Below are positions 2,019 to 23,495 of a stretch of DNA of 64,000 bases, one piece after another (the first letter of the stretch is position 1; every line of letters begins with the position of its first letter). This DNA comes from Microgenomates group bacterium (GTDB lineage Bacteria > Patescibacteriota > Microgenomatia > UBA12405), in the NCBI GenBank assembly GCA_049303675.1, contig JBAQNJ010000001.1, forward strand, positions 344,711 to 408,710. Direction: 5' to 3'. Position numbers and translations under genes: made by a program. A model generated the notes under the pieces. It was not told the DNA's origin. It was given only the letters and a program-made list of their open reading frames with translations, and ran no database searches.

Positions 2019-2060
2019 CAAGGGAAGGTGGTCCCGCAGCTGCGGGACCGGAAGGGTTTT
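2019..2060. repeat. GC-rich hairpin element copy A (caagggaagg-TGGTCCCGCAGCTGCGGGACC-ggaagggtttt), between the two tRNAs
   Basis: Perfect 10-bp palindrome flanked by mirror G-rich arms; near-identical architecture at 12825-12862. Confidence 0.6.
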
Positions 2061-2061
2061 G

Positions 2062-2135
2062 TAGCAGGACCGGGACTTGAACCCGGAACCTCAGCGTTAT
2101 GAATGCTGTGCTCTAACCAATTGAGCTATCCTGCC
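2062..2135 (-). tRNA. tRNA-Met(CAT), elongator-like; no CCA encoded
   Basis: Reverse complement GGCAGGATAGCTCAATTGGTTAGAGCACAGCATTCATAACGCTGAGGTTCCGGGTTCAAGTCCCGGTCCTGCTA. Anticodon loop TTCATAA; resembles elongator tRNA-Met. Confidence 0.7.
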
Positions 2136-2192
2136 ATACCAAAAACTAAGGTGATTATATCAAAAATTGTGAATTCGCTTCGTAGCTATTGT

Positions 2193-2450
2193 CTACTGCA
2201 ACTTCGTCGGTCTTCCCTTCTGTCCGTCTGTCAGTTCTAGCAGAGATTCATCAAACAACTTTTCGGATTTATTCTGTTCTGTTGTTTCCACAATTGGGTT
2301 TAGCTCCATTATTTCCAGTGCTCTCACCATCAATTCAGCATCGTAAAGAGTTTTAGATCTGTCTTTAATTTTTTCCAATTCGCTTCCATGCCTTTCTCCC
2401 ACTATTTTCATCAACAAAGACTTGGCCATTCGCTGCTTTAATGTATCCAT
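2193..2450 (-). CDS. hypothetical protein
   Basis: 85 aa ORF. Confidence 0.3.
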   Translation of the reverse strand: MDTLKQRMAKSLLMKIVGERHGSELEKIKDRSKTLYDAELMVRALEIMELNPIVETTEQNKSEKLFDESLLELTDGQKGRPTKLQ

Positions 2451-2475
2451 ATTTGCCTATTATACCTCATAATAT

Positions 2476-2530
2476 ACAAAAAAGCCGTCAAACCTGTCCG
2501 CCGTGGTGGATTAATGACGACCTCTTTGTT
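2476..2530. repeat. copy 1 of a 37-bp direct repeat (acaaaaaagccgtcaa...ttaatgacgacctctttgtt) carrying a 19-nt internal insertion
   Basis: Matches 2834-2870 except for the insert acctgtccgccgtggtgga. Confidence 0.6.
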
Positions 2531-2833
2531 TCATCGCAACCTCCATTAAATTCTCTGCTGAATTCACATTCCCGTGGGCCATATACGCAAAATACCAAAT
2601 TGAACTATCCATATCTGTGCCAGGGACAACTCTTCTTCCCGTTGAACTCTCCACCAGTTTCTCTAGTCTAGTGACTAGTATAGCAGTTGCTGACGGCTCT
2701 GCACTTGGAATTGGTCCGCGTGTTTCTCTTCTCATACAACTTCCATGCACTATTGCCATAAGATATGTTATCACCTTTGAAGAGCTTTTGTCAATTATAC
2801 CCTCTTCTTCCACAACATTCCCAGTAACAGTGC

Positions 2834-2870
2834 ACAAAAAAGCCGTCAAGTTAATGACGACCTCTTTGTT
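2834..2870 (-). terminator. copy 2 of the 37-bp repeat; on the minus strand it forms hairpin GTCGTCA-ttaact-TGACGGC followed by TTTTTTGTG (terminator-like)
   Basis: Inverted repeat plus T-run read directly from the sequence. Confidence 0.4.
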
Positions 2871-3002
2871 GTAAAGTAAGTGGTACCGACTTTCATCGAT
2901 ACATACATATTATATCAATGAGTATCATTTATGTCTAGTTTTTACTATTTAGACCAAAAATACAAATCTATTCTATCTCTTGACTAAATTTAATATACTT
3001 TA

Positions 3003-3011
3003 TGCTAGAAT
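3003..3011 (+). promoter_or_regulatory. extended -10 promoter element TGcTAGAAT upstream of the structured RNA
   Basis: TGn + TAGAAT; TTGACT at 2980-2985 gives a long 20-nt spacer, so the -35 is weak or absent. Confidence 0.35.
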
Positions 3012-3038
3012 AGCTATGTTCTTTGACAACATAAGATG

Positions 3039-3343
3039 TGCGGGGTAGTGTACGGCTGCACGTGAGGCTAGTAGTATGGGCCCATTAAGCGGTAACGCTT
3101 AATGCAAACTTGGCTATATCGGTGAACAACCTAATGACGATGATTTAGGTAAATACCGAGGGAACCCTTTCGATAAACTCAAGGCTATAGCCCTGAGCAC
3201 AGCGAAGGGGACTCCGTAGAGACTAGACGCCAAGCTCCTCCGATAGCTATCGGAGGATGATGATATAGTCCGACACTCTTGGTAACAAGAGATTACAGAC
3301 AGCATAATCTCACAGGCTGGGTTCAACTCCCAGCCCCGCAACA
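3039..3343 (+). ncRNA. structured RNA with a tRNA-like 3' end; tmRNA (ssrA)-like candidate
   Basis: 5' TGCGGGG (3039-3045) pairs with 3' CCCCGCA (3334-3340) across about 290 nt. T-arm CTGGG-TTCAACT-CCCAG matches the E. coli tmRNA T-loop UUCAACU. Discriminator A, then promoter upstream and a strong terminator immediately downstream; no long ORF. The acceptor lacks the G3·U70 pair and no convincing ...AA tag frame was found. Confidence 0.4.
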
Positions 3344-3350
3344 GAAAAAA

Positions 3351-3377
3351 CCCTCCGATAACATCGGAGGGTTTTTA
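3351..3377. terminator. bidirectional rho-independent terminator (CCCTCCGAT-aaca-ATCGGAGGG + TTTTT; A-run on the other side)
   Basis: 9-bp GC-rich stem with flanking A6 and T5 runs; sits between the plus-strand RNA gene and the minus-strand gene ending at 3380. Confidence 0.75.
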
Positions 3378-3379
3378 AT

Positions 3380-3793
3380 TTAATTGCCTATCTGGGTCAA
3401 CAGTTCCCACCAAGCCACAATGTTTGGCTTCTGATTAGTTTGACTAAACTTTTCTACCAGTTCAGGCATTTTTTCCGCTGGCGGCATAATTAGCCAATAA
3501 TCATTTTCCCTGCCAACTCCAAAATATTCCCTTGCCTTGCGCTCAATTATTTCACTACTGGTAGCCTCTTCTGCCAATTTAGTATATTTTCTTATTTCTT
3601 GCTGCATCTCCTGTTTTTTCGTTTCTAGCCTTAGTAGACGCCTCTGCCCCGCCTCTAGGGTGGTCCATTGTCGGACTACGTTGACGATCGAAGAAAATAT
3701 TATATAAACCAAAATCACATAAAAACCCCACTGTTTTAGCCATTTCACCCATTCTAATTGTCTTTTGTCCTTATTTGTGTTACTATAAGTCAT
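3380..3793 (-). CDS. FtsB/DivIC-like septum formation initiator (single TM plus coiled coil)
   Basis: N-terminal TM helix, heptad-rich region, ERKAREYFGVGRENDY tail typical of FtsB/DivIC. Confidence 0.45.
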   Translation of the reverse strand: MTYSNTNKDKRQLEWVKWLKQWGFYVILVYIIFSSIVNVVRQWTTLEAGQRRLLRLETKKQEMQQEIRKYTKLAEEATSSEIIERKAREYFGVGRENDYWLIMPPAEKMPELVEKFSQTNQKPNIVAWWELLTQIGN

Positions 3794-3794
3794 T

Positions 3795-4661
3795 ATGTCT
3801 CAAATAACTATCGAAGCTGCCCTCAATTCATTCACTGGGGCACTTGCCAAGAAAGGCAAGTCAACCAATACTATTGTAGCCTACAAAGGCGACATCAACC
3901 AGTTAATCACTTATCTGAATACCCAAAATGTGGTTGCCATCGACTCCATAACTGGAGTCCATATCGAAGGCTTCAAAAAATATTTGGTTAGCAACAATTA
4001 CACCGCCAAATCAGTTTCTCGTAAACTCAACTCTATCAAAAACTTTTTTTCTTTTCTCATTAGCGATGGCAAAATATCTACCGATCCTTCCACCGATGTC
4101 AAGCATCCCAAGTACGAAAACGATATTCCCAAGATATTGAAACCTCTCGAATATCGCTCCCTGCGCGATGCCTGTCGCAATGATATTCGGACTACAGCTA
4201 TCGTCGAACTGATGTTGCAGGCTGGTCTGCGCATCAAAGAAATCGAGAATCTCAAATTAGAAAATGTCCGAGACAATGAAATTTTTATCGAAAGCTACGA
4301 GAGCCATGGTTCACGCGCTGTCCCGCTCAACAATTCATCCAAAACAGCCCTCAAAAAATACATCGAAGAAGTCCGTTATCAAACCAAGTCCAAAAATGTT
4401 TTTGTCACCAAAACCGGTCGTCATCTCTTAGCCCGTAATATACGTAGTTTACTCAATCGTTATTTTGACAAAGCCGATATTCATGGGGTGAAGGTCAACG
4501 ATTTGCGCAACACTTTCATCGTCTTCCAGCTCAAATCTGGTGTTCCCATGGATGTTGTTTCTCAGGTCGTTGGTCACAAGCGCATTTCTACCACCGAAAA
4601 ATATCTCGAACTCATCGATTCCAAAGAAGAATCAAAAGGGATCAAATTAAAAGAATTATAA
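3795..4661 (+). CDS. tyrosine recombinase, XerC/XerD-like
   Basis: 288 aa; N-terminal core-binding domain (TIVAYKGDINQLITYL); C-terminal catalytic region with R...HxxR...GHKRISTTEKYLEL (catalytic Tyr). Confidence 0.75.
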   Translation: MSQITIEAALNSFTGALAKKGKSTNTIVAYKGDINQLITYLNTQNVVAIDSITGVHIEGFKKYLVSNNYTAKSVSRKLNSIKNFFSFLISDGKISTDPSTDVKHPKYENDIPKILKPLEYRSLRDACRNDIRTTAIVELMLQAGLRIKEIENLKLENVRDNEIFIESYESHGSRAVPLNNSSKTALKKYIEEVRYQTKSKNVFVTKTGRHLLARNIRSLLNRYFDKADIHGVKVNDLRNTFIVFQLKSGVPMDVVSQVVGHKRISTTEKYLELIDSKEESKGIKLKEL

Positions 4662-4663
4662 AA

Positions 4664-4909
4664 ATGGCCAGTCTCTCAGCCAAACTTTCTCCCGACACCA
4701 ATAGAAGAATCTCTGAGGTTGGTGCCGATGCCGCCTATACTATCAATAGTTTAACCAATTTCGTTATGGCCACCACCACTCGAGGAACACTGCCTGTAGC
4801 AGAATTGTTAGTTACCGCTATTCCAGTCGGAAAAAAAATAAGTGCCCTCACCTTAGAAGTCACTCGAGTAGCCAGCTCAATATTATTAGACATCTCCAGA
4901 AGGAGCTAA
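4664..4909 (+). CDS. hypothetical protein
   Basis: 81 aa ORF. Confidence 0.3.
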   Translation: MASLSAKLSPDTNRRISEVGADAAYTINSLTNFVMATTTRGTLPVAELLVTAIPVGKKISALTLEVTRVASSILLDISRRS

Positions 4910-4918
4910 CTTTTCTGC

Positions 4919-5386
4919 ATGGACAAATTAAAAGATCGCCGGATCTCACCTCTGCTTGAATTATTATCCACAGTCAATGATCACGAAGTAATTCACGGTG
5001 GCCTGTCTTCACCTGATTGCCAAACCTGTGCTACAAACACCGCCAAAATAGAAAAAATGATCGAGGCTCGTATTGCCGCCCGACAACCAACTGTGGAACC
5101 TCATGTTTTTGCATTAGTCAAAACCGTATCTGAATTAAATATTCAAATGGAGGGAGGTTCTCGTGGACCAATCAAAAATGCTGCCTTTTTACTTTTTACT
5201 GCTGATTCTCCAGTCGGACGTCTCCAAACTCTAACCGCCGGTCGAAGTATGTCCGACACCACCGCCAACTTCCCTTTTGGAATAAGGGATGGCTTAACTT
5301 TATTAAGTGATTACTCCCAAAAAATGGCAGAATTTACATATAATGAAAAATGGAGCCATCTCTCAAATCTTTGTCGCAACTGGTAA
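4919..5386 (+). CDS. hypothetical protein
   Basis: 155 aa ORF. Confidence 0.35.
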   Translation: MDKLKDRRISPLLELLSTVNDHEVIHGGLSSPDCQTCATNTAKIEKMIEARIAARQPTVEPHVFALVKTVSELNIQMEGGSRGPIKNAAFLLFTADSPVGRLQTLTAGRSMSDTTANFPFGIRDGLTLLSDYSQKMAEFTYNEKWSHLSNLCRNW

Positions 5387-5423
5387 TTACAAAAATATAT
5401 TTTCTTTTGTATTATAATTCCTC

Positions 5424-6536
5424 ATGTCCCTAGACCCAGTCATCGCAGCCGAATTAATCAAACTCGAATCAAAATACACCTATCGTAGCGAGGAAGTTTA
5501 TTATTTCAACGTTCATCGTCCTGCCTCACTTGTCCGCCAACTACAACATCGGACAGAGGAATTTGATGATACAGTAGTCCCCGCTATTTTCGAGCATGCC
5601 CTCCACGAAAAAGTTTATCATCACGAGGTTTTTACCAACATGGGCACTGGCCACATTATCGTTTTTGTGCAGACTGGTAGTGGTCGCGACCTAGTTCTCC
5701 GTGCCAATCACGCCCTGACCACTCCCGAATACTATATGGATTGGGAGCGGGAAATCGCCTCCCAGTTCGAAGCCATTGGTGTTCACAGTGTTCCCATTTT
5801 ATATAGCGACACTAGCCGTCAATTTTTCCCTTTTGATTATCAAATCATCGAGAAATTATCCGGCAAAGATTTGGAATTAGAATGGGAGGGGACACAGGAT
5901 AATTATAATCAGCTTAGTTTTGACTTAGGTCAAATTTTTGCCAAGCAATATCAATTGCCAGCCACAGGGTGGGGCCGCTGGACCAAGGATGCTACAGGTC
6001 AAATAGTTGGCGCTTTGCCTAGCCATCATGATTATCTCACTGCCTATCTTGATCATGATTTAGAGTTCATTACTTTCTTCAAATTCATCTCCTCAGCCGA
6101 CTCCAATCGTCTTCATGCCTATTTCAATTCGCCAGATATCACTTCACTTTTTGCCGACACTACTCAGGGATACTACATGCACCACGACCTGCCCGATCAC
6201 AATGTCCGCTATGACAACCATAAAATCATTTCTATCTTTGATTGGGAGAATGCCGTTGTCTTCGATCCAATTTGCGATTTAGGCGCTGTCCCTACTTGGA
6301 AATCCCACTATCCTCGGGAAAAACAGTTTATCGATGGTTTTATCTCGGAGTTAGGCCACAAACCAGCCAATCTTGAGGCCAAAATTGCCGTCTATCTTCT
6401 ACGTACCATGCTCTGGAAAATCCAATTTGCTCTGAAGGGCAATCGGCTCAGTGCTCGCCATATCAATCTCTTCGAAGAAGCTCTCATCCGTAACGGCCTC
6501 TCCGAAGTCACCATCCTCGGCCAACCCTCCAACTAG
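5424..6536 (+). CDS. phosphotransferase-family (APH-like, protein-kinase fold) protein
   Basis: HHDLPDHNVRYDNHKIISIFDWENAVVFDP matches the APH catalytic loop (HxDxxxxN) and DxE/DWE motif. Confidence 0.55.
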   Translation: MSLDPVIAAELIKLESKYTYRSEEVYYFNVHRPASLVRQLQHRTEEFDDTVVPAIFEHALHEKVYHHEVFTNMGTGHIIVFVQTGSGRDLVLRANHALTTPEYYMDWEREIASQFEAIGVHSVPILYSDTSRQFFPFDYQIIEKLSGKDLELEWEGTQDNYNQLSFDLGQIFAKQYQLPATGWGRWTKDATGQIVGALPSHHDYLTAYLDHDLEFITFFKFISSADSNRLHAYFNSPDITSLFADTTQGYYMHHDLPDHNVRYDNHKIISIFDWENAVVFDPICDLGAVPTWKSHYPREKQFIDGFISELGHKPANLEAKIAVYLLRTMLWKIQFALKGNRLSARHINLFEEALIRNGLSEVTILGQPSN

Positions 6537-6551
6537 TGCTATAATCGCCAT

Positions 6552-6749
6552 ATGAACACACCAGATTTAGATAAGGACTTGCTAGTTCTAGCTGTCAAGA
6601 CAAAACTAATCATTCCCCCCATCTTTGCCGAGTCTCAGGCTCCAGACGCGGTCAAAATTGGCGATGATTCATACAATCCTCACAAACTCGCGGCCATGAT
6701 CGATGCTCGGCTCACAAATACACCACTCACCGATCTTATATTTGAGTAG
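6552..6749 (+). CDS. hypothetical small protein
   Basis: 65 aa ORF. Confidence 0.25.
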   Translation: MNTPDLDKDLLVLAVKTKLIIPPIFAESQAPDAVKIGDDSYNPHKLAAMIDARLTNTPLTDLIFE

Positions 6750-7092
6750 ACTCTTTTGCTGTTCTAATTATTTTTGAAAATATCAAATATAGTTCTTCTA
6801 TTTCATTCCACAATGGAATTAACTCAGGTTTAACGGTCGGTTCAGCAGTGCCAAGTAGTCTTATCCAGTGTTTAGTTTCTTTGATTTCTTTTAAACTAAT
6901 TTTAAGTTTATGGATAAAGTCTTTTCTACTCTCACTACCATTTGCTTCACAATAGTTAGCACCAATCGACCCAGATGACCCGACTATTTGATTAATAATT
7001 CGGCTATTTAGTGGGGTTGGCTTAATTCTTTTTAGTAACTTAATAATGTCCTCAGCAAATTTTACTGTTCTTTCCTCCAAATCATACTTCAT
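6736..7092 (-). CDS. four-helix-bundle protein (TIGR02436-like, as often found in 23S rRNA intervening sequences)
   Basis: 118 aa; ...DFIHKLKISLKEIKETKHWIRLL... pattern typical of this family. Confidence 0.45.
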   Translation of the reverse strand: MKYDLEERTVKFAEDIIKLLKRIKPTPLNSRIINQIVGSSGSIGANYCEANGSESRKDFIHKLKISLKEIKETKHWIRLLGTAEPTVKPELIPLWNEIEELYLIFSKIIRTAKESTQI

Positions 7093-7124
7093 TTTCTTTT
7101 CTTAAATTTTCTTTGTTCTTGTTT

Positions 7125-7157
7125 CTGTTAAATTCTTAAATTCTGTTAAATTTTCTC
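7125..7157 (+). repeat. TCTGTTAAATT direct-repeat motif, copy R1
   Basis: tctgttaaattcttaaattctgttaaattttctc; near-identical to 13582-13615. Confidence 0.6.
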
Positions 7158-7158
7158 A

Positions 7159-9492
7159 TCACAGTTTCGCTCTCTTACCAATATCACTCTCCACAATCTC
7201 TCTCGGTCTCCCATATTTTAGACTCGACAATTTTTTAATCATCGCTGCCAATTCTGGATTCCCCGGTTTTTTTATTTCATCAGCCGTAATGTTGAGGGAG
7301 AATGGGGATTGAGGTATTCCATTGACCATAGTCTTCAAATAAGTGTGTCCTACTGGCAAATTCAGCAAATCATGTTCGTTAAATTCTGGCTTAAATTGGT
7401 TTACTAAGAAGCTGGCATCCGAGATACCTACTCGGAAGCTACAAATCGACCCCACGTTTCCAAAGACAGCGTTTTTAATCTCATCATCCATTTGGGAGAT
7501 AAACTGGTTGCCCACCGTCAAATTCAAGTGATATTTTCGCGCCTCTGACATGATCACCGCAAAGTCTTGAGTGGCAAAGTTTTGGAACTCATCCACGTAC
7601 AAATAAAAATCTTTTCGTAGTGGCTCTGGCGTGTCCTGCCGGCTCATAGCCGCAATCAGTATTTTGGGAATTAGCACCAGTCCGAGGAAGGCGGAGTTTT
7701 CTTCGCCGATACTTCCCTTGGCCAAATTAATAATCAGTATTTTCCCCTCATCCATGGCAGTGCGAAAATTAAACGAGCTCGTCGATTGTCCAATAATATT
7801 TCGCATCATGGTGTTGGTGATGAACCGTCCAAATTTAGAGACGATATAATCGAGCACTTCTGATTTATGAAACTCATTAGTGTTGGCAATTTGATCTGTC
7901 CAATAGCGTTTGACCATCGGGTCGTGAACTTTGGGCAATAATTGTTGGACAAATGATGGGTCAGTCAGACAGCGGACTATTTCAATAAAAGTCGCCCCAG
8001 GTTCGGCCATTACCGTCAACATAATATTACGGATAGCATGTTCAAACCGCGGTCCGACAATCCCTGTTTTGTACGGATCATACAGTTTATACATCAGGTT
8101 AATAATCGAGCTAGTCACAAAATCTTTTTGGTCTTCCCGCTCGCATTCCATCACATTAAATCCCATTGGTCTATCCACCATCCCTGGGTCAAAATAAATT
8201 ACATCCTCTACTCTTTCTGGTGGTATCCGCTCCAGTATCATTTCATAGGTATCATGAGGATCAATAAAACACACCCCCTTGCCCGCCTTAATATCTTGCA
8301 GTGCCATGTTGGCCAGTAGCCACGACTTTCCTACCCCAGTTTGCCCCACGATATAAAAGTGTCGTTGTCGGTCTTTGGTAGTGATATGGAATTTCTTTTT
8401 TATTCCTCGATAATGATTTTCTCCTATATATATCCCCTCAGCCGGGCTATCGGTGGGTGCTGGGGCATTCTTGGATTTTAGCCAATAAATATTTGGGGTT
8501 TGAATAGTTTTGTTGGGGAAGTGGAATATCGAGGCCACCTCATCCGCCGACAAAATAGTTTTATTTTTATACCAATAAATAATTGGGTATTTATAAATAT
8601 AATCGTCCAAAAACAATTTTTTCACCCAAATTTTTCGCGACGATAATTTACTCCATGGTGATTCAAATTGAGAAAAGCTGGCCTTAATATTCGACAAATT
8701 TCTCTTGGCTATTTCTTCGGTCGGGGCAAACGAGACTATTCGTATGGCAGTTTCAAATCCCACCCGACTCGACTTGCTATCAATCGCCTCCAGTTGCCTC
8801 GCATCTACTTTGTAGCTCGCTTTTTCCGGATTAGCCTCCGCTTTTTTGGTACTGGCCACAAAACCTTTACCATTTTTGGCCCACATCCCGTCAGTTGGTG
8901 ACAGCACTAGTTGTATGGCCACACTTTCGTTTGGACTCAGCTTCGACAGGGCCGAGGTCATCGCCGACAGGGGATCAGTGGCTATTTCTCGGTATGTTTT
9001 TAGGGGAATATAGGGTGCCTTTTTAATTCCCATCCACGCATACTCCGCCCTACCTTCCTCCGGATAGATATTTGGCTCTTCCACTTCCTCCACATTGGCC
9101 CCCGCATAGACGCTATAAATTTGTTTCTCTATAAAATCTTGGGTCTTTTTCGGTACACAGACATAAAATTTTATGTCCTCATTAGTACCAATTATTTCTA
9201 GCGACACGCTTGGTTGGGCCTGAAATCTTTGAAAAATTTTGAATTTAGCACTTTTATAGAGACTACCCATTGATCCAATAATCTGCTCCATGGCATCAAT
9301 TTTTATCTCATTATCCTCGGGCACAGCCACGAGTAGTGTTACCATCTCTAGGGCTTTTTCTTCACGATCCCGCCACTTGTACCACAGTACGAAGGCCGCT
9401 CCCAGTAGCCACAAGAGTAGGCCCACTAGGACTACTAGCATCATTACCATCAGAGCATTGGTAGCATAGGTCACCACTATATCTGTATTCAT
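7159..9492 (-). CDS. TraG/VirD4-like type IV coupling-protein-family ATPase (two N-terminal TM helices plus FtsK/HerA-type P-loop)
   Basis: 777 aa; N-terminal hydrophobic helices; Walker A GQTGVGKS; Walker B LYVDEFQNF; size and architecture typical of T4CP / DUF87 ATPases. Confidence 0.5.
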   Translation of the reverse strand: MNTDIVVTYATNALMVMMLVVLVGLLLWLLGAAFVLWYKWRDREEKALEMVTLLVAVPEDNEIKIDAMEQIIGSMGSLYKSAKFKIFQRFQAQPSVSLEIIGTNEDIKFYVCVPKKTQDFIEKQIYSVYAGANVEEVEEPNIYPEEGRAEYAWMGIKKAPYIPLKTYREIATDPLSAMTSALSKLSPNESVAIQLVLSPTDGMWAKNGKGFVASTKKAEANPEKASYKVDARQLEAIDSKSSRVGFETAIRIVSFAPTEEIAKRNLSNIKASFSQFESPWSKLSSRKIWVKKLFLDDYIYKYPIIYWYKNKTILSADEVASIFHFPNKTIQTPNIYWLKSKNAPAPTDSPAEGIYIGENHYRGIKKKFHITTKDRQRHFYIVGQTGVGKSWLLANMALQDIKAGKGVCFIDPHDTYEMILERIPPERVEDVIYFDPGMVDRPMGFNVMECEREDQKDFVTSSIINLMYKLYDPYKTGIVGPRFEHAIRNIMLTVMAEPGATFIEIVRCLTDPSFVQQLLPKVHDPMVKRYWTDQIANTNEFHKSEVLDYIVSKFGRFITNTMMRNIIGQSTSSFNFRTAMDEGKILIINLAKGSIGEENSAFLGLVLIPKILIAAMSRQDTPEPLRKDFYLYVDEFQNFATQDFAVIMSEARKYHLNLTVGNQFISQMDDEIKNAVFGNVGSICSFRVGISDASFLVNQFKPEFNEHDLLNLPVGHTYLKTMVNGIPQSPFSLNITADEIKKPGNPELAAMIKKLSSLKYGRPREIVESDIGKRAKL

Positions 9493-9872: not shown

Positions 9873-9907
9873 GTTTTAAGTATAAACCAAACTTCCTCTT
9901 TTCGTAG

Positions 9908-11032
9908 TTGTTATACTACTTTATTATGGCTCAAAACTATTCTTCCCGTGGCACCCCAGTTGTCACTATCTTGGCCATCGCTTTTCTGATTTTTTTGTCT
10001 GTCTGGTTTGTTCGCGGTGAATCATTTCGTCTCTACGCCAGCCTTTTTTTTGGACTCTATTATCTGACCAAGACTTCGTGGTTGTCAATTATTTTAGTTA
10101 GCATTGTTCAAAACATTTTTTTTCTGCCTTTTCGGATTATCTCTGAGCGTTTTTATGTCGATTTGAAGGATTTTGAACACGAACTCACCAAGTCGAAGGG
10201 GGACGAGCAGTCTTTTGTCTTGAAGAAGCAAATCCGCTCTGGTAACCTCTCGGTTATTTTTTACATCATCAATTTCGTTCTCTTCTTTATCGCCTTTATC
10301 TCGGCCGGCCGAGTCTTTTTCTTGGAGTTTTACCACACCCCCATTGCCCAGCACTGGCTCTATTCTTGGGTGCCTTACCCCACTTATCCACTGCAAGGAG
10401 TCATTTTTAATTTTCCTTTCTTTAGGGCCACTGGTACTTTTGCTCTGGAGTGGTGGACTATTGCCAAAATTTGGCTAATTCCCATTGGCATTCTCGCCCT
10501 TATCCGCATACTCTGGCGACTTATCAAACCCTTTATTTCCGGTAATCAAAAATTGTTGGAGACTCGTATCGGTATCAATCGTTTCAAACTCCTTACCTCT
10601 GGTTTTATGGGCACCATTTTTATTTTATCTCTCTATTTTTTCCGTCATGTTCCTACCGGTATTCAGTTTTATTGGCTCTCGGCCGATTTAAGTAAACAAA
10701 ATACAGTTTTCAATATTATCACTGCTATCTGTACAGCCTTTGCAGCAGTCTATGCTGGGGCTCAGCACAACAAAGAGACATCCATTGAGGCTCGCGTTCG
10801 CGGCATCCCCGAAGACATAATTACCCGAGTCAATCACGCCTATCTGCGCCAAAGTGTCAAAAATGGCATACTGCTTGGCATTTCCGCACTCATTGTTACC
10901 CGTCTTATGCCCTGTTCCCACGACTTATCAGTTCTGGCGTTCGAAGCACTCTATTTAATGTCCCCCATTACCTTTGATCTTCTAATTCCCAAAAAACGTG
11001 ATCGTCCTGTTCCTGCTACCACATCAACATAA
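9908..11032 (+). CDS. polytopic membrane protein, function unknown
   Basis: 374 aa with at least 8 hydrophobic segments; weak YidC-like N-terminal resemblance but no conserved insertase core seen. Confidence 0.35.
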   Translation: MLYYFIMAQNYSSRGTPVVTILAIAFLIFLSVWFVRGESFRLYASLFFGLYYLTKTSWLSIILVSIVQNIFFLPFRIISERFYVDLKDFEHELTKSKGDEQSFVLKKQIRSGNLSVIFYIINFVLFFIAFISAGRVFFLEFYHTPIAQHWLYSWVPYPTYPLQGVIFNFPFFRATGTFALEWWTIAKIWLIPIGILALIRILWRLIKPFISGNQKLLETRIGINRFKLLTSGFMGTIFILSLYFFRHVPTGIQFYWLSADLSKQNTVFNIITAICTAFAAVYAGAQHNKETSIEARVRGIPEDIITRVNHAYLRQSVKNGILLGISALIVTRLMPCSHDLSVLAFEALYLMSPITFDLLIPKKRDRPVPATTST

Positions 11033-11201
11033 TCTACTACTAGTCTCTATCTATCGGCCAAATTACAATTCCAAATTCATTCGTAATTCGCCTGTGCCCA
11101 TTTGGGTATAATTATTAATTCGTAATTAATTTATACGTCCCGATTCACCATATACTCCGCCACGGCAGAATGATATATTCATCATGTCCGACTAAACTTC
11201 T

Positions 11202-12251
11202 ATGGTAGACACAGACTTCATCAGTATTCTCAAAAATTATCGTGATTTAGTTTCCCCAGTAGTTCTCCGTTACCTAAGTGAATCACTCCAGTTTCCACAG
11301 TATTGTCAAATTGATCCAGCACACCAAGCAGAATTAGATTTCCAAGAAAAATTAATTAGTGAATATCCCCGTAGATTTGGTAAATATCTTCGCCCTTCTC
11401 TGGTCATGGCTACTGCGTTGGCCATGGGAGCCAAAACCGAAGCTGTTTTATTGACCGCTGCTGCCATGCAATTATCTGAGGAATGGATTCTCATTCACGA
11501 TGATATTGAAGATGATTCCGAGGAGAGACGTGGCTCACCTACACTTCAAAAGTTATTCAATGTTCCCCTTGCCGTCAACGCTGGCGATGCCCTACATGTC
11601 ATTATGTGGAAAATAATTGGAGATATTGATAACAAAAAAGTTTTCAATGAATTCTATCAACTGTTAAATCGGACAACTCTTGGCCAGACTATTGATATTC
11701 ATTGGAATACCCAAAACAAACTTGACATTACCGATGAAGACATTTTTCTAATACTTGAAAGCAAAACTTGCTATTACACCATTTCTGGTCCTATGAGGCT
11801 GGGAGCAATAGTTGCAGGATCTACCGATTCTCAACTAAATACAATATATCTATTTGGGCGATATCTTGGTCGTGCCTTTCAAATAATCGACGACATCCTC
11901 GACCTAACCTCTGATTTTGCCGGACTCAAAAAACAATCATTTAATGATATATACGAAGGCAAACGGACAATTCCTTTATCTCACCTATTAAAATTAGCCA
12001 ACGCTGAGGAATTATCCACTATCAAAAGTATTTATTCTAAGACTCGTGCTCAAAAATCAGAATCAGAGGTAGCTACAATAATTAATTTAATGAATAAATA
12101 TCATACTATTGATTCTGCCCGTGACATGGCCAAAAATTTTGCTCAAGCAGCCAAAAAAATGTTAAATGAAAAAATGTCTTTTATAAGAATTGAGCCGTAT
12201 CGTCATCAGCTTGAGACCGCAATTGATTTTATCGTCTCTCGCGACCATTAG
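11202..12251 (+). CDS. polyprenyl (isoprenyl) diphosphate synthase
   Basis: First DDxxD (ILIHDDIEDD) and second DDxxD (FQIIDDILD) motifs at the correct spacing. Confidence 0.8.
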   Translation: MVDTDFISILKNYRDLVSPVVLRYLSESLQFPQYCQIDPAHQAELDFQEKLISEYPRRFGKYLRPSLVMATALAMGAKTEAVLLTAAAMQLSEEWILIHDDIEDDSEERRGSPTLQKLFNVPLAVNAGDALHVIMWKIIGDIDNKKVFNEFYQLLNRTTLGQTIDIHWNTQNKLDITDEDIFLILESKTCYYTISGPMRLGAIVAGSTDSQLNTIYLFGRYLGRAFQIIDDILDLTSDFAGLKKQSFNDIYEGKRTIPLSHLLKLANAEELSTIKSIYSKTRAQKSESEVATIINLMNKYHTIDSARDMAKNFAQAAKKMLNEKMSFIRIEPYRHQLETAIDFIVSRDH

Positions 12252-12333
12252 TCACAAATTTCATCAATGTGTCTTTTGCATTCATAGGTATTTAGTCGAA
12301 TTTCACTATCATATCATTTGAATTTCATTATTG

Positions 12334-12366
12334 TCTGTTAAATTCTGTTAAATTGTTAAATTTTCC
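12334..12366 (+). repeat. TCTGTTAAATT direct-repeat motif, copy R2 (upstream of 12392 CDS)
   Basis: tctgttaaattctgttaaattgttaaattttcc. Confidence 0.6.
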
Positions 12367-12391
12367 TTTCTTTTTCTGTTATTCTTAATTA

Positions 12392-13579
12392 ATGCCTCAG
12401 AAAAAACCGGAGTATACAGTCACTTTTGGTGGCTGGTACCAGCGCACTACTCTTCATCTCACCGAAATTTATGATCTCTTCGCTCTCGGCCGTTCTGGGC
12501 TCAAGTTAGACTCTCAGAAACTCCAAGAATTACATCAAAATCTCAAATTTGTCTCCGTCACTCGCGAATGGGGAGATTTAGAATATATCGTTTGTCAGAC
12601 TCGGGAAGGTATTGCCGTCCGCTATTACGAAGACGGACTTTATGTCCTCTCCCTCAATACCAGCGATATTGCCGCCGGCCAACATACTCTTCGTCATTAT
12701 TTTGACACTTGTCTTTCTCCCGCTATTTCCTACATATTTTCTCTTGGCGCCCCCACTCCCAAAATTCTCGCCAAAATCAAACCCGATCACCCATTCGTTG
12801 TTTCGAGTATTAGCTCCCCTTCTTCAAGGGGAGGTGGTCGCCTCAGGCGACCGGAGGGGTTTGGTCCCATTTATTCCCAAATTACCAGTTCTCATATTAC
12901 AGTCTCCAAAACACCATCCACAATTTACATTTTTTCCCCCTCAAATTTTTCTCACCTTCGCGACTTAATTGAAATGCAAATATTCTTCCGTGAGTTCAAA
13001 GATCAGCTCCATCGTTACCTCAACCTTCACCGAGAAATCTGGGAAGAAATTTCCGATATCAAGGAGAGGGGAGTTATCATCGGTACCCAAATTGAGACCC
13101 TTCGTTCCCGCCTCGACTCCTATCAGAAGACTATCAATCTCATCAAAAGTCGCCTCAATCAAATGGGCGCCTATGTCCACACCCGCGCCTCTCTGGCTCG
13201 CAAGTTGTCTCTCGAAGATCAACTGGCTTCTGTTTTCCAATACAAGTTCGAGACTCTCTCCGATACTCATTCTTATGTTCAGGAAATTTGGAAAATGACT
13301 CAGGATTATGTCGAAACGGCCATTGCTGTGGTCAATGAAGTCAAGGGTCGCAGTAGTAGCAACGGTATCAATTCTCTTCGACTAATCACCACCATTGGTG
13401 TCCTCTCGGGTATTTTTAGTTATTTGAGCAAGGATACTTTTCCCGTTTTTACCTGGATCGGTCTCTGGTACTTTCTCATTTTAGTTATCGGTACCTATCT
13501 TATTGATCAATTAGTTTCCTCAACTTACAAAAAATATCGTTATCAACTCAAGTTCGCCAACAATCAGGGAATTAAATGA
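12392..13579 (+). CDS. hypothetical protein with C-terminal TM helices, carrying an in-frame insertion of GC-hairpin element copy B
   Basis: 395 aa ORF; residues SSRGGGRLRRPEGFG are the translation of the 12825-12862 element. Confidence 0.4.
   Translation: MPQKKPEYTVTFGGWYQRTTLHLTEIYDLFALGRSGLKLDSQKLQELHQNLKFVSVTREWGDLEYIVCQTREGIAVRYYEDGLYVLSLNTSDIAAGQHTLRHYFDTCLSPAISYIFSLGAPTPKILAKIKPDHPFVVSSISSPSSRGGGRLRRPEGFGPIYSQITSSHITVSKTPSTIYIFSPSNFSHLRDLIEMQIFFREFKDQLHRYLNLHREIWEEISDIKERGVIIGTQIETLRSRLDSYQKTINLIKSRLNQMGAYVHTRASLARKLSLEDQLASVFQYKFETLSDTHSYVQEIWKMTQDYVETAIAVVNEVKGRSSSNGINSLRLITTIGVLSGIFSYLSKDTFPVFTWIGLWYFLILVIGTYLIDQLVSSTYKKYRYQLKFANNQGIK
12825..12862. repeat. GC-rich hairpin element copy B (caaggggagg-TGGTCGCCTCAGGCGACC-ggaggggttt), inside a CDS
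   Basis: Same mirror G-rich arms as copy A; central hairpin sequence differs but its pairing is preserved. Confidence 0.6.
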
Positions 13580-14685
13580 ATTCTGTTAAATTTTTAAATT
13601 CTGTTAAATTTTCTCAGTTTTTTCCCGCCATCTTTCTCATGTTCATGGGCACTGTTGGTTCAGGTATCTTTGTCCTGCCCTATTTATTTTCTCAGTCCAA
13701 TTTTATTTTTGCCTCGGTTTTTTTAGTCTTTCTGACTATCATCACTGCAGTTCTTAACCAGTTTTATGTCGCAATTGTCACCACTACTGCTGGCGATCAC
13801 CAGCTCTCTGGCTATGCCCAAAAATATTTAGGTCATCGCTTTGGACTTCTCGCCAGTCTCAACTTATTGATTCTTGCCTTTGGCGCCATTTTGGCCTATT
13901 CCAAGCTCTTTTCCGGCTTTACCCTAGTCGTTTTTCCCAATTTCTCTATTTATCTAATCTCTTTTTTATATTTATTAATCATTTTTGTTTTATTTTATTT
14001 TCACCAAATTTTATCCAAAAATATATTTCTCCTCATCCCCATTTTTATTTTAGTGGTTCCCATATTTCTTTATTTTTATTCTTTTAACTATCCACTATTA
14101 ACTATTAACTATTCACTATCAATTACCCCCTCCTTCTCCTTCTTTGGTCCTCTTCTCTTTGCCCTTTCTGGATTTACCATTATTCCCGAGGTCAGGGAAA
14201 CTCTCGGTACTCCCAAAAAGTTGTCACTAGTTGTTACCCTTGGGTTACTCTTAGTAGCCATCATTTATTTTCTCTTCGCTTTTTCTATTATCCGACTAAG
14301 TGGCGACTCCCTGAATATCGATTCGGTTACTGGGCTAGCCACCTCTTTTCCCTTATTAGCCAAATTAATCGCCATTTTTGGCATGGTAATTACTCTCCGA
14401 TCCACGGTAAACTTTATGGTCATTTTACGCGAGTTATTTTATCGTGATCTCAAGGTATCTTTACCCATAGCCAATCTATTACCATCACTCTTTCCCTTGT
14501 TGGGTTTGTTGCTGACAACAGTTTCTCTACTGACTGTCATCTCTTTGACTGGCCATTTTACTATTTTCGTCTCAGCCCTAGTTATTTGTCTTATCCGTCT
14601 GCGGCTTCCCCATAGCTTTTGGACAGAGTTTTGGGCAATATTAATTATGCTAACCCTTACCCTCGGATTAGTCATTGCCCTATGA
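13576..14685 (+). CDS. polytopic membrane transporter (APC/amino-acid-permease-like); true start probably 13639
   Basis: About 11 hydrophobic segments; GSGIFVLPY motif near the N-terminus. Confidence 0.4.
   Translation: MNSVKFLNSVKFSQFFPAIFLMFMGTVGSGIFVLPYLFSQSNFIFASVFLVFLTIITAVLNQFYVAIVTTTAGDHQLSGYAQKYLGHRFGLLASLNLLILAFGAILAYSKLFSGFTLVVFPNFSIYLISFLYLLIIFVLFYFHQILSKNIFLLIPIFILVVPIFLYFYSFNYPLLTINYSLSITPSFSFFGPLLFALSGFTIIPEVRETLGTPKKLSLVVTLGLLLVAIIYFLFAFSIIRLSGDSLNIDSVTGLATSFPLLAKLIAIFGMVITLRSTVNFMVILRELFYRDLKVSLPIANLLPSLFPLLGLLLTTVSLLTVISLTGHFTIFVSALVICLIRLRLPHSFWTEFWAILIMLTLTLGLVIAL
13582..13615 (+). repeat. TCTGTTAAATT direct-repeat motif, copy R3
   Basis: ttctgttaaatttttaaattctgttaaattttctc; lies in the annotated 5' end of ORF 13576-14685, whose real start is probably ATG 13639. 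Confidence 0.6.
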
Positions 14686-15881
14686 AATTCAAAAAAATCT
14701 TATTTACTGCCGGCGCCATGCTCTTTTTTTGGTCAATTTATGATGGCATTATTTCCTACTTAGTCCCTGTTTTTATTACCAATCGCGGCTACAGCAACTC
14801 GGTCGTCGGCCTACTTATTTCCCTCTCAGCTATTTCTGGTGCCATTTTTGACATTATCATCAGCAAGTTTATTCGGGGGGCGCACTATCTCAAATATTTT
14901 CTCCTCGTCTTTATCCTCAGTTTTGCTATGCCACTTGTCCTCTGGTCAGCCTCGACTATTTCTCTTTTTATACTCGCCATGGCCATGTGGGGACTCTATT
15001 ATGACCTGATGAATTTTGGTATTTTCGATTTGGCCAGCCGCATCTCACAGAAGCATGAGCACACCAAAAATATCAGCATCATCGGTGTTTTCAAAACCGT
15101 CGGCTATTTTATTGGTCCGCCACTAATTGCCTACATTATTACTTTTAGCTCCGTCTCCCTTACACCCATTGCTCCAATTTATATCTTTCTAATTATCGCC
15201 GCAATTATCTATATCATTTTATTTTCCCTTACTGATGCTCGGGATTTTATCCGTCCAGTCACCTATCGCGAATCTCATGTTTATTGGTTCAAAGAATTAA
15301 TTGTCTGGAAAAAATTGGCCAAAGTCCTCTTACCAGTGCTTATCTTCAACATCCTCTTTTACATTTTTGAGGCTACTTTTTGGACTCTTGGACCTATTTT
15401 TTCCCAGCAGTTTCCCGACTCCCAGCATTTTAGCGGCTTGTTTATGATTGTCTACGTTTTGCCGGCGGTTATCGCCGCTGGTTTTGCTGAGAAAATTACC
15501 GGTTGGTTTGGCAAGAAGCGGACAGCTTATGTTGCTTTTATTATTTCCAATTTGTTTCTCATTCCCCTCGGTCCTTTTGCTACTCCGACACTTATCTTAG
15601 TATTAGTATTTATTTCCACTATCGCCGGTTCCCTGGCGTGGTCGGCTATCAGTGGTGCTTTTGTTGATTATTTATCCGAGACAGATTTGTATGACAGTGA
15701 AATCATTGGGCTCAAAGATTTTTCAGCCAACACGGGCTATATCTTGGGGCCAATTTTAGCTGGAGTCATTTCTGATATTGTCGGCATCAGCTACACCTTC
15801 ACCATATTGGGAATTATCAATATATTGGTAGTTATCTATCTTTTTTCCATCACTCCCAAAAATATTGTTATTCCTGACTGA
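14682..15881 (+). CDS. MFS-type transporter
   Basis: 12 predicted TM helices; ATG 14682 overlaps the upstream stop (ATGA). Confidence 0.5.
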   Translation: MKFKKILFTAGAMLFFWSIYDGIISYLVPVFITNRGYSNSVVGLLISLSAISGAIFDIIISKFIRGAHYLKYFLLVFILSFAMPLVLWSASTISLFILAMAMWGLYYDLMNFGIFDLASRISQKHEHTKNISIIGVFKTVGYFIGPPLIAYIITFSSVSLTPIAPIYIFLIIAAIIYIILFSLTDARDFIRPVTYRESHVYWFKELIVWKKLAKVLLPVLIFNILFYIFEATFWTLGPIFSQQFPDSQHFSGLFMIVYVLPAVIAAGFAEKITGWFGKKRTAYVAFIISNLFLIPLGPFATPTLILVLVFISTIAGSLAWSAISGAFVDYLSETDLYDSEIIGLKDFSANTGYILGPILAGVISDIVGISYTFTILGIINILVVIYLFSITPKNIVIPD

Positions 15882-15922
15882 TACAGATTGACCCTGTAGA
15901 AATATCTGGTACAATATAGGAT

Positions 15923-16252
15923 ATGGCAAAAAGAAGAAGTCCAGAGCAAATAGAATCAGCAAATAAGATCGATACCTTTGTCAGGATTATTAAAAGTGCT
16001 GAACACCGTCTCCCCAATTATATTGAATCAGGTGACATCGAAGGTGCCACTGCTGGTATTGTTGTTCGTAATTGGTTTGCTGCATGCGCCCACGTCGAAA
16101 GGGGACGAGCCACACTCACTGGACTTGTTCCAGGTACAGAATTAGATGTACTCAAAGATGCTGGATCGGCAGTAGTCAATGTCCTCCTTATTCCAGTTGA
16201 AGCCAGTGTCTTTGCTATTAGGGCCGCAGGACATATCATTCCGAAAAAGTAA
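15923..16252 (+). CDS. hypothetical protein
   Basis: 109 aa ORF. Confidence 0.3.
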   Translation: MAKRRSPEQIESANKIDTFVRIIKSAEHRLPNYIESGDIEGATAGIVVRNWFAACAHVERGRATLTGLVPGTELDVLKDAGSAVVNVLLIPVEASVFAIRAAGHIIPKK

Positions 16253-16267
16253 AATCAAGGGAAACTA

Positions 16268-16783
16268 TTATCCCTTCATAGCCTCGTCTGCCGCATTTCT
16301 TTGATCTATATCCACCCAATATAATTTGCCGCGATCACTTTCTATCCCCTTCAACCAAAACCGATTCCTACTTCCCTGAGCATCCTTCAGTCTTGCCATT
16401 GTCTCTAGAGTATCCTTCCTTGGAAATTCATATGCCGGCCCTATTTGATTTAGCGCCTCCATTCTAGCTATATGTTTCTCATGAATATACATAAACCTGC
16501 CCGCTCTTCCGTCTTCATCTTCACTCCGCTTAACCAATTTCTTTATCGGTCCTGTTCCATATTCCACCACTTCGTCTAGTGCCGATAAAGCCGTCAAATT
16601 ACCCTGTGCCAACCCCATCCCCGGAATTCTGGCCAAAATATCATCAGCAGTCAGTGCGACATTACTTTCATTCATTATTCTCTTGATTTCTTGGCCATAA
16701 TATTGTCGTCTCTCGTATTCTCTCCTTTGTTTACTAATTATTGCCATATTCGCTATATTACCACACCCATATATTTCATCCAA
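16268..16783 (-). CDS. hypothetical protein
   Basis: 171 aa ORF. Confidence 0.35.
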   Translation of the reverse strand: MDEIYGCGNIANMAIISKQRREYERRQYYGQEIKRIMNESNVALTADDILARIPGMGLAQGNLTALSALDEVVEYGTGPIKKLVKRSEDEDGRAGRFMYIHEKHIARMEALNQIGPAYEFPRKDTLETMARLKDAQGSRNRFWLKGIESDRGKLYWVDIDQRNAADEAMKG

Positions 16784-16808
16784 TTACAATATGCTTATCT
16801 CCCTTTTT

Positions 16809-17927
16809 TCAAGGCCATGCCTGCCGGCAGGCAGGGGAGAAGCCGCGAAGCGGAGAGGGGTTTATCGCCCAGAGTATCATCCCCGCTGCCCAGGCAAAGG
16901 GGTGTTCGGCAGTATACAGTTTTCTTTTTACCGATTTTCCATTTCTTTCATAGCACTCATAAATTATTTTGTCATCTACAATTTTTTGACTTATATTTTG
17001 AATTATTTTTAGAGCTTCTTTATTTTTACCTACTCTGCTTAGGGCCACTATATAGGCAGTAATTGTCTGCCACCACAATATCCCTTTATTTTGGTAATCA
17101 GGGATTCCTACTATTCTTTGCAGGATATCCACTCGCCACCACGGATACTTTGGACTATTTGTCTCCATCGAAAAATTAGCCAGCGTCTTCTGGCACTCGG
17201 CCAAAATACTCTTACTTTCCTCACCAGTCGTTAGTCCCCAAATTATAGCCAGACAATTTCCAAAAGGATACAAATAATCTTCTCTCTTATAGTCGTGCCA
17301 GTCAGCCAAATATTTCCCATTCCATAGTTTCTCTCTTATATTTTTAGCTATGTCTTTTTCTTTGGACTTGTTTAAATCCTTATATATTTTCCAATAAATT
17401 ATATTGGTGTAGAGTAGGTGTCCCCACTTCCACACCGCATCATTCCATTCGGCCATTGGCCCATCCCATAGTAGTCCATTCTTTTCTTTAGACGACAAAT
17501 ATTTTAGGGATTTATCGATATTTTTCTTATATTTATCTTTATCAACATGTATCGCCAGCAGGGTTATTAGTGTCGTTCCATCTAGCACCTCCTGACCCAG
17601 CCCTCTCAACTTATATGTTGGTCGCGGTGTTTTATAAAACTTTGGTTTACCAAAATATTTACCCATATTTAGTGGCCCGTTCATTATCCGGTAGGGGACC
17701 ATGCCATCCTCCCGTTGGAACGAGAAAAATAGATCCACCATTTTTATGACTATTTCCCTATCCCCGATTTCCAGCGACCCGAGGGCCGCGAAAAATCCAT
17801 CTCTGGCCCAATAATCAGTAAAGTGATGTCCGCCCGCCACAACACCCTCACTCCGATAGCAATCCCTCAAATTTTTCTTGGCTATTTCTCTGGCCTCTGC
17901 CACCATATCCATTCTAAAGTCTAACAT
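16809..17927 (-). CDS. glycoside-hydrolase-like (six-hairpin / GDE_C-like) protein
   Basis: 372 aa; HFTDYWARDGFFAALGSLEIGD motif reminiscent of amylo-alpha-1,6-glucosidase / GH63-like domains. Confidence 0.4.
   Translation of the reverse strand: MLDFRMDMVAEAREIAKKNLRDCYRSEGVVAGGHHFTDYWARDGFFAALGSLEIGDREIVIKMVDLFFSFQREDGMVPYRIMNGPLNMGKYFGKPKFYKTPRPTYKLRGLGQEVLDGTTLITLLAIHVDKDKYKKNIDKSLKYLSSKEKNGLLWDGPMAEWNDAVWKWGHLLYTNIIYWKIYKDLNKSKEKDIAKNIREKLWNGKYLADWHDYKREDYLYPFGNCLAIIWGLTTGEESKSILAECQKTLANFSMETNSPKYPWWRVDILQRIVGIPDYQNKGILWWQTITAYIVALSRVGKNKEALKIIQNISQKIVDDKIIYECYERNGKSVKRKLYTAEHPFAWAAGMILWAINPSPLRGFSPACRQAWP
16810..16865. repeat. GC-rich hairpin element copy C (larger relative: caagg-GCCTGCCGGCAGGC-aggggagaa-GCCGCGAAGCGG-agaggggttta)
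   Basis: G-rich arms caagg / gaggggttt resemble copies A and B; two GC hairpins; supplies the C-terminal residues of the minus-strand ORF 16809-17927. Confidence 0.45.
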
Positions 17928-22959: not shown

Positions 22960-22987
22960 TGATCACTGATCACTGATCACTAATCAC
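22960..22987. repeat. tandem heptamer (TGATCAC)x3 + TAATCAC spanning the stop of the minus-strand gene
   Basis: ctgatcactgatcactgatcactaatcac; each unit carries a GATC. Confidence 0.6.
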
Positions 22988-23425: not shown

Positions 23426-23495
23426 GGGGGTATTTTAACATTAGTACGTCATTGCGAGGGGTTTATCCCCGTGGCAATCTTTTGTAATTCTGCCT

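Follow-up and report, generated by a model that had tools for sequence, protein, structure and literature searches.

A 64,000-nucleotide (nt) stretch of the genome of a Microgenomates group bacterium close to Candidatus Shapirobacteria (referred to below, at its full length, as the window) contains three short GC-rich elements: copy A, located between two tRNA genes, copy B, translated in frame within a conserved open reading frame (ORF), and copy C, which supplies the tail of another ORF. Our analysis shows that they belong to a dispersed intrastrand triplex motif family of the BoxC/PIT/TMECO kind, and they are probably solo, non-autonomous ends of a selfish unit associated with a gene for a DUF559 nuclease. 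We regard as evenly balanced the broader proposition that across bacteria the BoxC/PIT/TM triplex repeats are the cognate DNA of DUF559 (YcjD-type, Vsr-fold) nucleases, in what would be a second REPIN/RAYT-like partnership; a triple helix folded from one strand, whether or not it bears an additional mini-hairpin, would then mark the ends both of a selfish unit of ~0.45 kb and of its gene-less offspring.

All three elements read on the plus strand and consist of three 8-nt blocks in the order pyrimidine (Y), purine (R) and mirror purine, the last of which runs antiparallel to the purine block. The original prediction had placed GC-rich hairpins between G-rich arms at 2019-2060 (A), 12825-12862 (B) and 16810-16865 (C), and the window does read there as described; the extents, however, are revised, since each element begins further left (A at 2009, B at 12814, C at 16798), at a CTCCCCT-like pyrimidine block that lies upstream of the left G-rich arm and is complementary to it. 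Copy A (2009-2059; delineated from the sequence, the triplex detector described below and the predicted DNA fold) comprises the Y block 2009-2016 (CCTGCCCT), a loop (2017-2020), the R block 2021-2028 (AGGGAAGG), a single T (2029), a palindromic hairpin 2030-2049 (GGTCCCGCAG/CTGCGGGACC) and the mirror (reverse-Hoogsteen) block 2050-2057 (GGAAGGGT), followed by TT. Copy B (12814-12862; same evidence) comprises the Y block 12814-12821 (CTCCCCTT), a loop (12822-12825), the R block 12826-12833 (AAGGGGAG), a hairpin 12836-12852 (GGTCGCCT c AGGCGACC) and the mirror block 12854-12861 (GAGGGGTT). Copy C (16798-16863; sequence, and the detector with a widened first loop) comprises the Y block 16798-16805 (TCTCCCTT), a first loop of 27 nt with the palindrome GCCTGCC/GGCAGGC (16819-16832), the R block 16833-16840 (AGGGGAGA), a hairpin CCGC-GAA-GCGG (16843-16853) and the mirror block 16854-16861 (AGAGGGGT).

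The arms of A and B are shared mirror repeats and not complements, as had been claimed: the pattern AAGGGRAGG-N10-30-GGARGGGTT matches only these two copies in the window and nothing in 100 dinucleotide shuffles. A mirror repeat cannot pair by Watson-Crick rules and suits the antiparallel third strand of a purine-motif triple helix (G.G-C, A.A-T, T.A-T). According to the detector, copy B exhibits eight of eight canonical triads, copy A eight with one mismatch in the Y strand, and copy C eight with one G.T. Counted from one 8-nt block to the next, the second loop, between the purine blocks, has a length of 21 nt (A), 20 nt (B) or 13 nt (C), and a hairpin lies in it in all three copies. Predicted single-stranded DNA folds of A and B consist of two hairpins, with the 3' G-rich block remaining unpaired (z = -3.7 and -5.3, respectively), and the fold of copy C is less clean (z = -0.8). 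A generic detector (an 8-nt purine block, preceded at 2-9 nt by its complement and followed at 2-40 nt by its mirror, at most one mismatch) reported only A and B in the window; to recover C as well, it needed a first loop of up to 32 nt. In shuffled windows it yielded 0-1 matches, and none at the widened setting that recovers C. A, B and C are the sole such elements of the window, and the detector found for none of them a partner on the other strand. The window has a G+C content of about 40% throughout, so the genome, described earlier as AT-rich, is only moderately so. Two other structural interpretations were rejected, namely a G-quadruplex formed by the G-runs (an orthologous copy in locus L003 has only two G-tracts outside the hairpin) and an intrinsic terminator (an 8-nt purine block separates the hairpin from TTT, and copy B lies mid-gene).

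The motif is by no means confined to the window. We scanned 185,579 species-representative genomes with a pattern for the three blocks, which fixed most stem positions; among the matches listed are Oscillospiraceae and other Clostridia, Gallionella, Bacteroidales, Elusimicrobia, Verrucomicrobia, Ignavibacteria, cyanobacteria (L067) and several phyla of the Candidate Phyla Radiation (CPR). Triad position 9, which was free in the search pattern, is occupied by CGG in 76, by GCT in 22 and by TAA in nine of the 143 distinct copies among the matches listed. Watson-Crick and mirror agreement at this position occur jointly in 110 of the 143 copies, compared to a mean of 38.5 and a maximum of 52 in 2000 shuffles, while position 10 shows no covariation signal in the same copies; hence the stem is about nine triads long, and the three-block core of this triplex-motif family is under three-way constraint. 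The second loop is bimodal: 40 of the 143 copies have a linker of 3-5 nt and the remaining 103 a longer insert, which folds into a hairpin of at least 4 bp in 91 cases. Because of the 40 copies with a mere linker, the three blocks must be regarded as the core and the hairpin as a common but optional addition; A, B and C thus do belong to one repeat family, as predicted, but it is not the hairpin that defines it. In IMG/VR, 68 stretches matched, of which several (L136, L142, L158 and their relatives) look like chance matches in conserved phage genes without a proper Y block and were not used as evidence. A megablast search with the first 20 kb of the window against phage genomes gave no match.

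Comparison of orthologous sites revealed both remodelling and absence of the motif. The gene that harbors copy B (12392-13579, plus strand) encodes a conserved 395-aa protein of Microgenomates/Shapirobacteria with no assigned function, in which the element is translated in frame, as predicted, into SSRGGGRLRRPEGFG, within a variable linker of the protein. Hairpin-loop forms occupy the same codon position in four orthologues (the window, L005, L003 and L279), with identical blocks and four different hairpins, whose triloops (TCA, GCA, GAA and GGA) are closed by C-G; the claim that the central hairpin varies while its pairing is kept is therefore confirmed. Another orthologue (L278) possesses a short-loop form with a coordinately different stem (TCTCCCTT / AAGGGAGA / AGAGGGAT), L280 a decayed form, and the gene in the relative Candidatus Shapirobacteria HYV64 (L007) is devoid of the motif; it is an orthologue without the insert, of the sort that the original prediction had proposed to look for. 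In L005 (3385-3460) a second, degenerate mirror block (GAGGGATTTGG) is found 10 nt past the first one, and the purine block is read in another frame than in the window, which hints at repeated remodelling of one site. Copy A, in turn, is intergenic, as predicted, between tRNA-Ile(TAT) (1912-1986) and tRNA-Met(CAT) (2061-2135), both on the minus strand. The spacer between these two genes measures 74 nt in the window, 51 nt of which are copy A, as opposed to only 13 nt in L007. The TAT anticodon of this tRNA-Ile is uncommon in bacteria, and the position of the gene next to tRNA-Met is kept in L007 (1586-1746).

Copy C supplies, also as predicted, the end of the ORF 16809-17927 (minus strand; weak GDE_C-like match): the tail LRGFSPACRQAWP, corresponding to the last ~13-16 codons, is read from the C-rich strand of the element, and the alignment of 150 homologues of the protein ends near residue 356 of 372. 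Residence in frame within genes is a general trait of the family, at least in CPR genomes. In UvrB from Candidatus Magasanikbacteria (L014, motif 2367-2397) a 14-residue in-frame insert, also read from the C-rich strand, coincides exactly with a triplex motif; none of the solved UvrB structures has this insert, which separates the conserved segments DYF and IDESH. In the genome of the window itself, a perfect short-loop motif with another type of stem (CCCCCCTT-GTTA-AAGGGGGG-ACCGA-GGGGGGAT; L281, 4285-4317) is translated as SPLVKGGTEGG in frame in a gene with UPF0004 and radical-SAM domains (MiaB/RimO-like), and a gene for an RND pump (L090) contains an inverted pair of motifs. In GC-rich genomes, many of the stop-to-stop ORFs that span copies place the motif in their first ~30 or last ~30 codons; such cases probably represent read-through of intergenic copies and not true insertions.

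The closest known counterparts of this family are the repeats named successively BoxC, PIT elements and TMECO or "intrastrand triplex motifs" (Hoyne & Maher 2000 as reviewed in Holder et al. 2015, PMC4666352). E. coli K-12 has 23 TMECO copies of the form CCCTCNCCC-N3-6-GGGNGAGGG-N3-GGGNGAGGG, all intergenic, with five inverted pairs, each of which combines a type A and a type B copy, and a TMECO single strand folds as a triplex in vitro (PMC4666352). Like A, B and C, these repeats display a pyrimidine, a purine and a mirror purine block on one strand (class II purine motif). Both kinds have 8-9 triads (C-G.G, T-A.A) and a short first loop, both are dispersed in many copies that frequently form inverted pairs of two subtypes, and neither has a transposase nearby. 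The stems differ (CTCCCCT / AGGGGAG / GAGGGG here, CCCTCNCCC / GGGNGAGGG / GGGNGAGGG in TMECO), as do the loops, which are short in TMECO, whereas in A, B and C the second loop forms a GC hairpin of its own and C has a hairpin in the first loop as well. The context differs too: B and C reside in coding sequence of a CPR host, whereas TMECO were reported to be always intergenic. Published searches limited the loops to 1-6 nt (ITxF) or 0-10 nt (PIT) (PMC4666352) and would have missed hairpin-loop forms such as A, B and C; loops short enough for such searches are found in 40 of the 143 relatives and in L278.

The link to DUF559 comes from the genomic neighborhood. When 3575 ORFs around motif copies were clustered by family, a single small family recurred close to the motifs across unrelated phyla (four), which Pfam assigns to PF04480 (DUF559) with E-values from 1e-26 to 1e-33; otherwise the clustering yielded only common families (e.g. 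ABC ATPases) and syntenic phage genes. DUF559 has a Vsr-like PD-(D/E)XK fold (PMC1189080), and the closest structure solved is 3HRL, an "endonuclease-like protein". The reverse search, from the gene to the motif, covered 80 metagenomic DUF559 loci (186 kb), the best matches to one query protein: 74 of them contain triplex motifs, 259 in total, against none in shuffles and a density of ~0.05 per kb in the window. A motif occurs within 150 nt of the DUF559 gene in 51 of the 56 loci that have at least 200 nt on both sides, and 27 of these 56 exhibit a full inverted bracket, in which a median of ~10 nt separates the end of the gene-strand motif from the ATG, and the opposite-strand motif begins 0-7 nt past the stop codon. 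In 13 units of one DUF559 subfamily, located in unrelated contexts, sequence similarity is confined to the region between the outer edges of the two motifs, and the two ends of a unit belong to different subtypes, as in the type A/type B pairs of E. coli. One locus (L215) has a full DUF559 unit and, 77 nt further on, a gene-less doublet with the identical pair of end types. From the interior of the full unit, the doublet retains in its 35-nt spacer the bases at either end, which identifies it as a deletion derivative. Gene-less doublets outside the window behave like miniature inverted-repeat transposable elements (MITEs), whereas the copies in the window are solo. Two loci contain motif arrays: in L217 (1138-1473), ten copies follow one another head to tail every 38 nt, upstream of a DUF559 gene, and in L227 (1834-2795), left-end and right-end motifs alternate with a period of ~155-220 nt downstream of another.

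Units of this kind are present in the genome of the window and in other CPR loci. The contig JBAQFH010000001.1 (998 kb; GCA_049287145.1) encodes a protein identical to that of ORF 12392-13579 and was taken as the contig of the window. It encodes, about 500 kb from the window, in the region 605,619-626,035 (L281), a DUF559 protein of 138 aa (P0364), whose gene has an upstream motif on the opposite strand (TCTCCCCT-GTTA-AGGGGAGA-TTT-AGAGGGAT), with a purine block identical to the R block of copy C, and a downstream motif that overlaps the last codons (CCCCTCGT-GTTA-AAGAGGGG-GG-AGGGGGAGAT); the two flanking motifs occupy 9949-9979 and 10383-10414 of L281. In another member of Candidatus Shapirobacteria (GCA_041674845.1; L284) the DUF559 gene is bracketed on both sides by CCTCGCCT-GTC-AAGGGGAGG-T-[hairpin]-GGAGGGGT; one of the two motifs reads AAGGGGAGGTGGTCGGCAGCGGCCGACCGGAGGGGT and is of the same type as A and B (AAGGGGAGGTGGTC...GACCGGAGGGGT), with another hairpin. 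In a further locus (L286) the gene has hairpin-loop doublets of the A/B type on both sides. The DUF559 unit of L284 adjoins an ORF for a GIY-YIG nuclease (1899-2219), which overlaps the downstream motif, and a second small GIY-YIG ORF was found in L281 (336-587), next to a 23S_rRNA_IVP gene; these are likely further selfish nuclease genes of such tiny genomes.

E. coli K-12 also has a DUF559 gene, ycjD. In the MG1655 region examined (1,351,205-1,351,760; L277), a TMECO-type pyrimidine/purine pair without a third block, CCCTCGCTC-TTTC-AGGGAGAGGG, extends across the ycjD stop codon, and TMECO no. 9 sits 168 nt downstream of the gene. Strains of phylogroups A/B1 have 18-30 TMECO copies and those of B2 only 1-2 (Holder et al. 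Suppl. Table S1; PMC4666352), and ycjD, according to an independent study (PMC12817139), is located between fabI and sapF in phylogroups A, B1 and C, with eefRABCD taking its place in B2 and others. These distributions fit a repeat population that depends on the gene.

Based on these observations we propose the following scenario. In the folded motif the pyrimidine block would pair with the purine block as a hairpin, and the mirror purine block would lie in its major groove as a third strand, with triads of the types G.G-C, A.A-T and T.A-T; a short GC hairpin is usually present, in this lineage, in the turn that separates the purine blocks. Motifs of this kind would serve as inverted ends of a selfish unit of about 430-550 bp that encodes a YcjD-like, Vsr-fold DUF559 nuclease. 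Its non-autonomous derivatives would be the doublets that lack the gene and the solo motifs, A, B and C among them, spread or maintained in trans by a DUF559 nuclease that is encoded elsewhere on the chromosome and would recognize the fold, as REP/REPIN depend on RAYT. We speculate that the folded or extruded motif is nicked and then copied in the course of repair. Copies within genes would survive only if they are free of stop codons, in frame, and located in a tolerant loop or tail.

Several points weigh against this scenario. We know of no experiment that links DUF559 to triplex repeats, nor of any DUF559 nuclease activity on them. A PD-(D/E)XK nuclease alone cannot account for cut-and-paste or copy-in, and the spreading step proposed above is a guess; moreover, the edges of the 13 units show no clear target-site duplication. 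The bracket has two opposite layouts, both inverted, with the Y blocks outside in the metagenomic subfamily and facing the gene in the CPR loci. The 80 DUF559 loci, collected with one query protein, may over-represent one subfamily, the copy number in the genome of the window rests on 84 kb examined of ~1 Mb, and the correlation between ycjD and TMECO in E. coli is confounded by phylogeny. Finally, DMS (dimethyl sulfate) footprinting detected no TMECO triplex in vivo, and no mobility genes occur near TMECO (Holder et al., PMC4666352).

It is conceivable, though in our opinion unlikely, that the motifs are structural DNA selected by the host independently of DUF559 (replication pause sites, recombination or instability hot spots, or insulators), and that DUF559 genes insert beside or between them, using them as landing pads. 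TMECO loci are indeed unusually variable among strains, which ties them to local genomic variability, and stop polymerases in vitro (Holder et al., PMC4666352), and a homing-type nuclease could use a pair of repeats as its target and homology arms, which would also generate bracketed genes. However, the orientation of the copies with respect to local GC skew is unbiased (33 vs 39 in genomes, p = 0.56; 22 vs 29 in viral contigs), copies lie in the genes of conserved proteins, UvrB among them, in which pausing would come at a cost, and PIT elements were found to have no promoter or terminator activity and no effect on replication in vivo (as cited in PMC4666352). In addition, the boundaries of the units coincide with the edges of the motifs and the doublets keep the ends of the spacer, which fits deletion derivatives better than empty targets.

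We give still less credence to the possibility that the elements are hairpin MITEs of the REP or Rickettsia palindromic element type, moved by another enzyme, e.g. a Y1 (RAYT or IS200-IS605-like) transposase, with the mirror arm being incidental. The similarity to REP/REPIN-RAYT systems is considerable (Bertels & Rainey 2011, PMC3116915; PMC3337134): in both cases a small nuclease-type gene, typically present in one or a few copies, lies within two inverted structured repeats, gene-less doublets and solo copies are scattered, and the type of repeat corresponds to the flanks of the gene in the same genome. Nonetheless, the RAYT enzyme is a Y1 HUH transposase (PF01797) and not a Vsr-like PD-(D/E)XK protein, REP is a simple imperfect palindrome with a GTAG head and not a three-block triplex motif, and it is RAYT/REP that has been studied biochemically; we read the relation as a likeness of architecture and not as membership. 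One contig (that of P0006; JGI 3300075153) does contain a 186-aa gene with a match to Y1_Tnp (PF01797) directly upstream of a motif-bearing orthologue of the copy B gene, but this match is faint and limited to that contig, no cluster of Y1 genes was found among the 3575 ORFs around the copies, where DUF559 is the recurrent neighbor, and it is the hairpin that is dispensable and unconserved in sequence, while the three blocks are conserved and covary three ways.

Rickettsia palindromic elements are ~100-150 bp long, restricted to Rickettsia, and lack a mirror-repeat or triplex architecture. Compared by description only, they resemble the present elements as short structured repeats of a small genome that reside in frame in genes, where surface loops and tails tolerate them, and they differ from A, B and C in size (49-66 bp here), in the core (mirror, not palindromic) and in the host. 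The parallel that the original prediction drew thus holds for the in-frame behavior; in size, sequence and host the present elements are distinct from them. The cyanobacterial small dispersed repeats of Elhai et al. 2008 are reportedly very small (20-30 nt), dispersed, capable of nesting, and composed of conserved flanks around a variable, compensated hairpin; the present motif, of which cyanobacterial matches exist (L067), may resemble them in these respects.

A function at the level of RNA, either as a cis-regulatory or processing structure (e.g. with the tRNA precursor at copy A) or as a pyrimidine-motif triple helix of the C-rich strand, appears highly improbable. Copy A does lie within a probable tRNA co-transcript, both strands of the elements fold as two stable hairpins, and the C-rich strand could in principle form C+.G-C and U.A-U triples, a motif that RNA can adopt; purine-motif triplexes, however, do not form in RNA (PMC4666352). 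Which strand is transcribed varies from copy to copy (C-rich in A and C, G-rich in B), copies occur in every context, including coding sequence on either strand and in unrelated genes, and an Rfam search of the window with gathering and E-value thresholds matched no family to the elements and reported only tRNAs and two group I introns. Triloops closed by C-G, which occur at the B site, are a typical feature of stable mini-hairpins in DNA. As to the idea that A and B resemble each other by chance, or only because a conserved peptide is encoded, it can be practically dismissed: some orthologues of the copy B gene do encode the linker SPLSKGDLEGF at standard length, but the shuffles gave no match, A is intergenic, the motif occurs in unrelated genes and phyla on either strand, and distant homologues of the B protein lack it.

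Several other features of the window deserve a mention. A hairpin at 23445-23468, proposed earlier as a further relative, has neither the three blocks nor a mirror arm and was not detected at any setting of the detector, and was excluded from the family; this small, unrelated hairpin lies beside the direct repeat TCCCCGTGGC(G/A)AATC (23394-23409 and 23465-23480), which flanks the start of a histidine-phosphatase ORF (22970-23425) and whose second copy overlaps the hairpin. The group I introns reported by Rfam (3060-3292 and 25381-25640) interrupt tRNA genes on the plus strand (3039-3342 and 25359-25689), which ARAGORN recognized only with introns allowed: tRNA-Met(CAT), with an intron of 233 nt, and tRNA-Thr(TGT), with one of 256 nt. 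The former gene is followed by a clean hairpin-plus-T terminator (3347-3375).

The link to DUF559 is new relative to the literature on BoxC/PIT/TMECO: a search of open-access publications, which did not extend to subscription literature, found no paper that ties DUF559, YcjD or PF04480 to BoxC or triplex repeats, and an open full-text search with the arm sequences returned only unrelated eukaryotic papers. Published triplex searches, with loops of up to 6-10 nt, miss a large and phylogenetically broad class of motifs with a hairpin in the loop, and triplex repeats extend beyond intergenic DNA, into the reading frames of UvrB and of a radical-SAM enzyme. BoxC/PIT/TMECO have been on record since the 1990s without a known origin, enzyme or function, and DUF559 (YcjD; PDB 3HRL) has been without a known substrate. 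The bracket architecture, the matching stems, the doublets and the phylogroup correlation together provide a concrete hypothesis that can be tested in E. coli K-12, with its one gene and 23 repeats. If it is true, a widespread domain, DUF559, would gain a function and these old repeats an origin, and the gene-less offspring of the unit could lodge in frame even in essential genes of the tiny CPR genomes; and if the nuclease recognizes a DNA triple helix, a mobile element would be recognizing nucleic acid in an unusual way.

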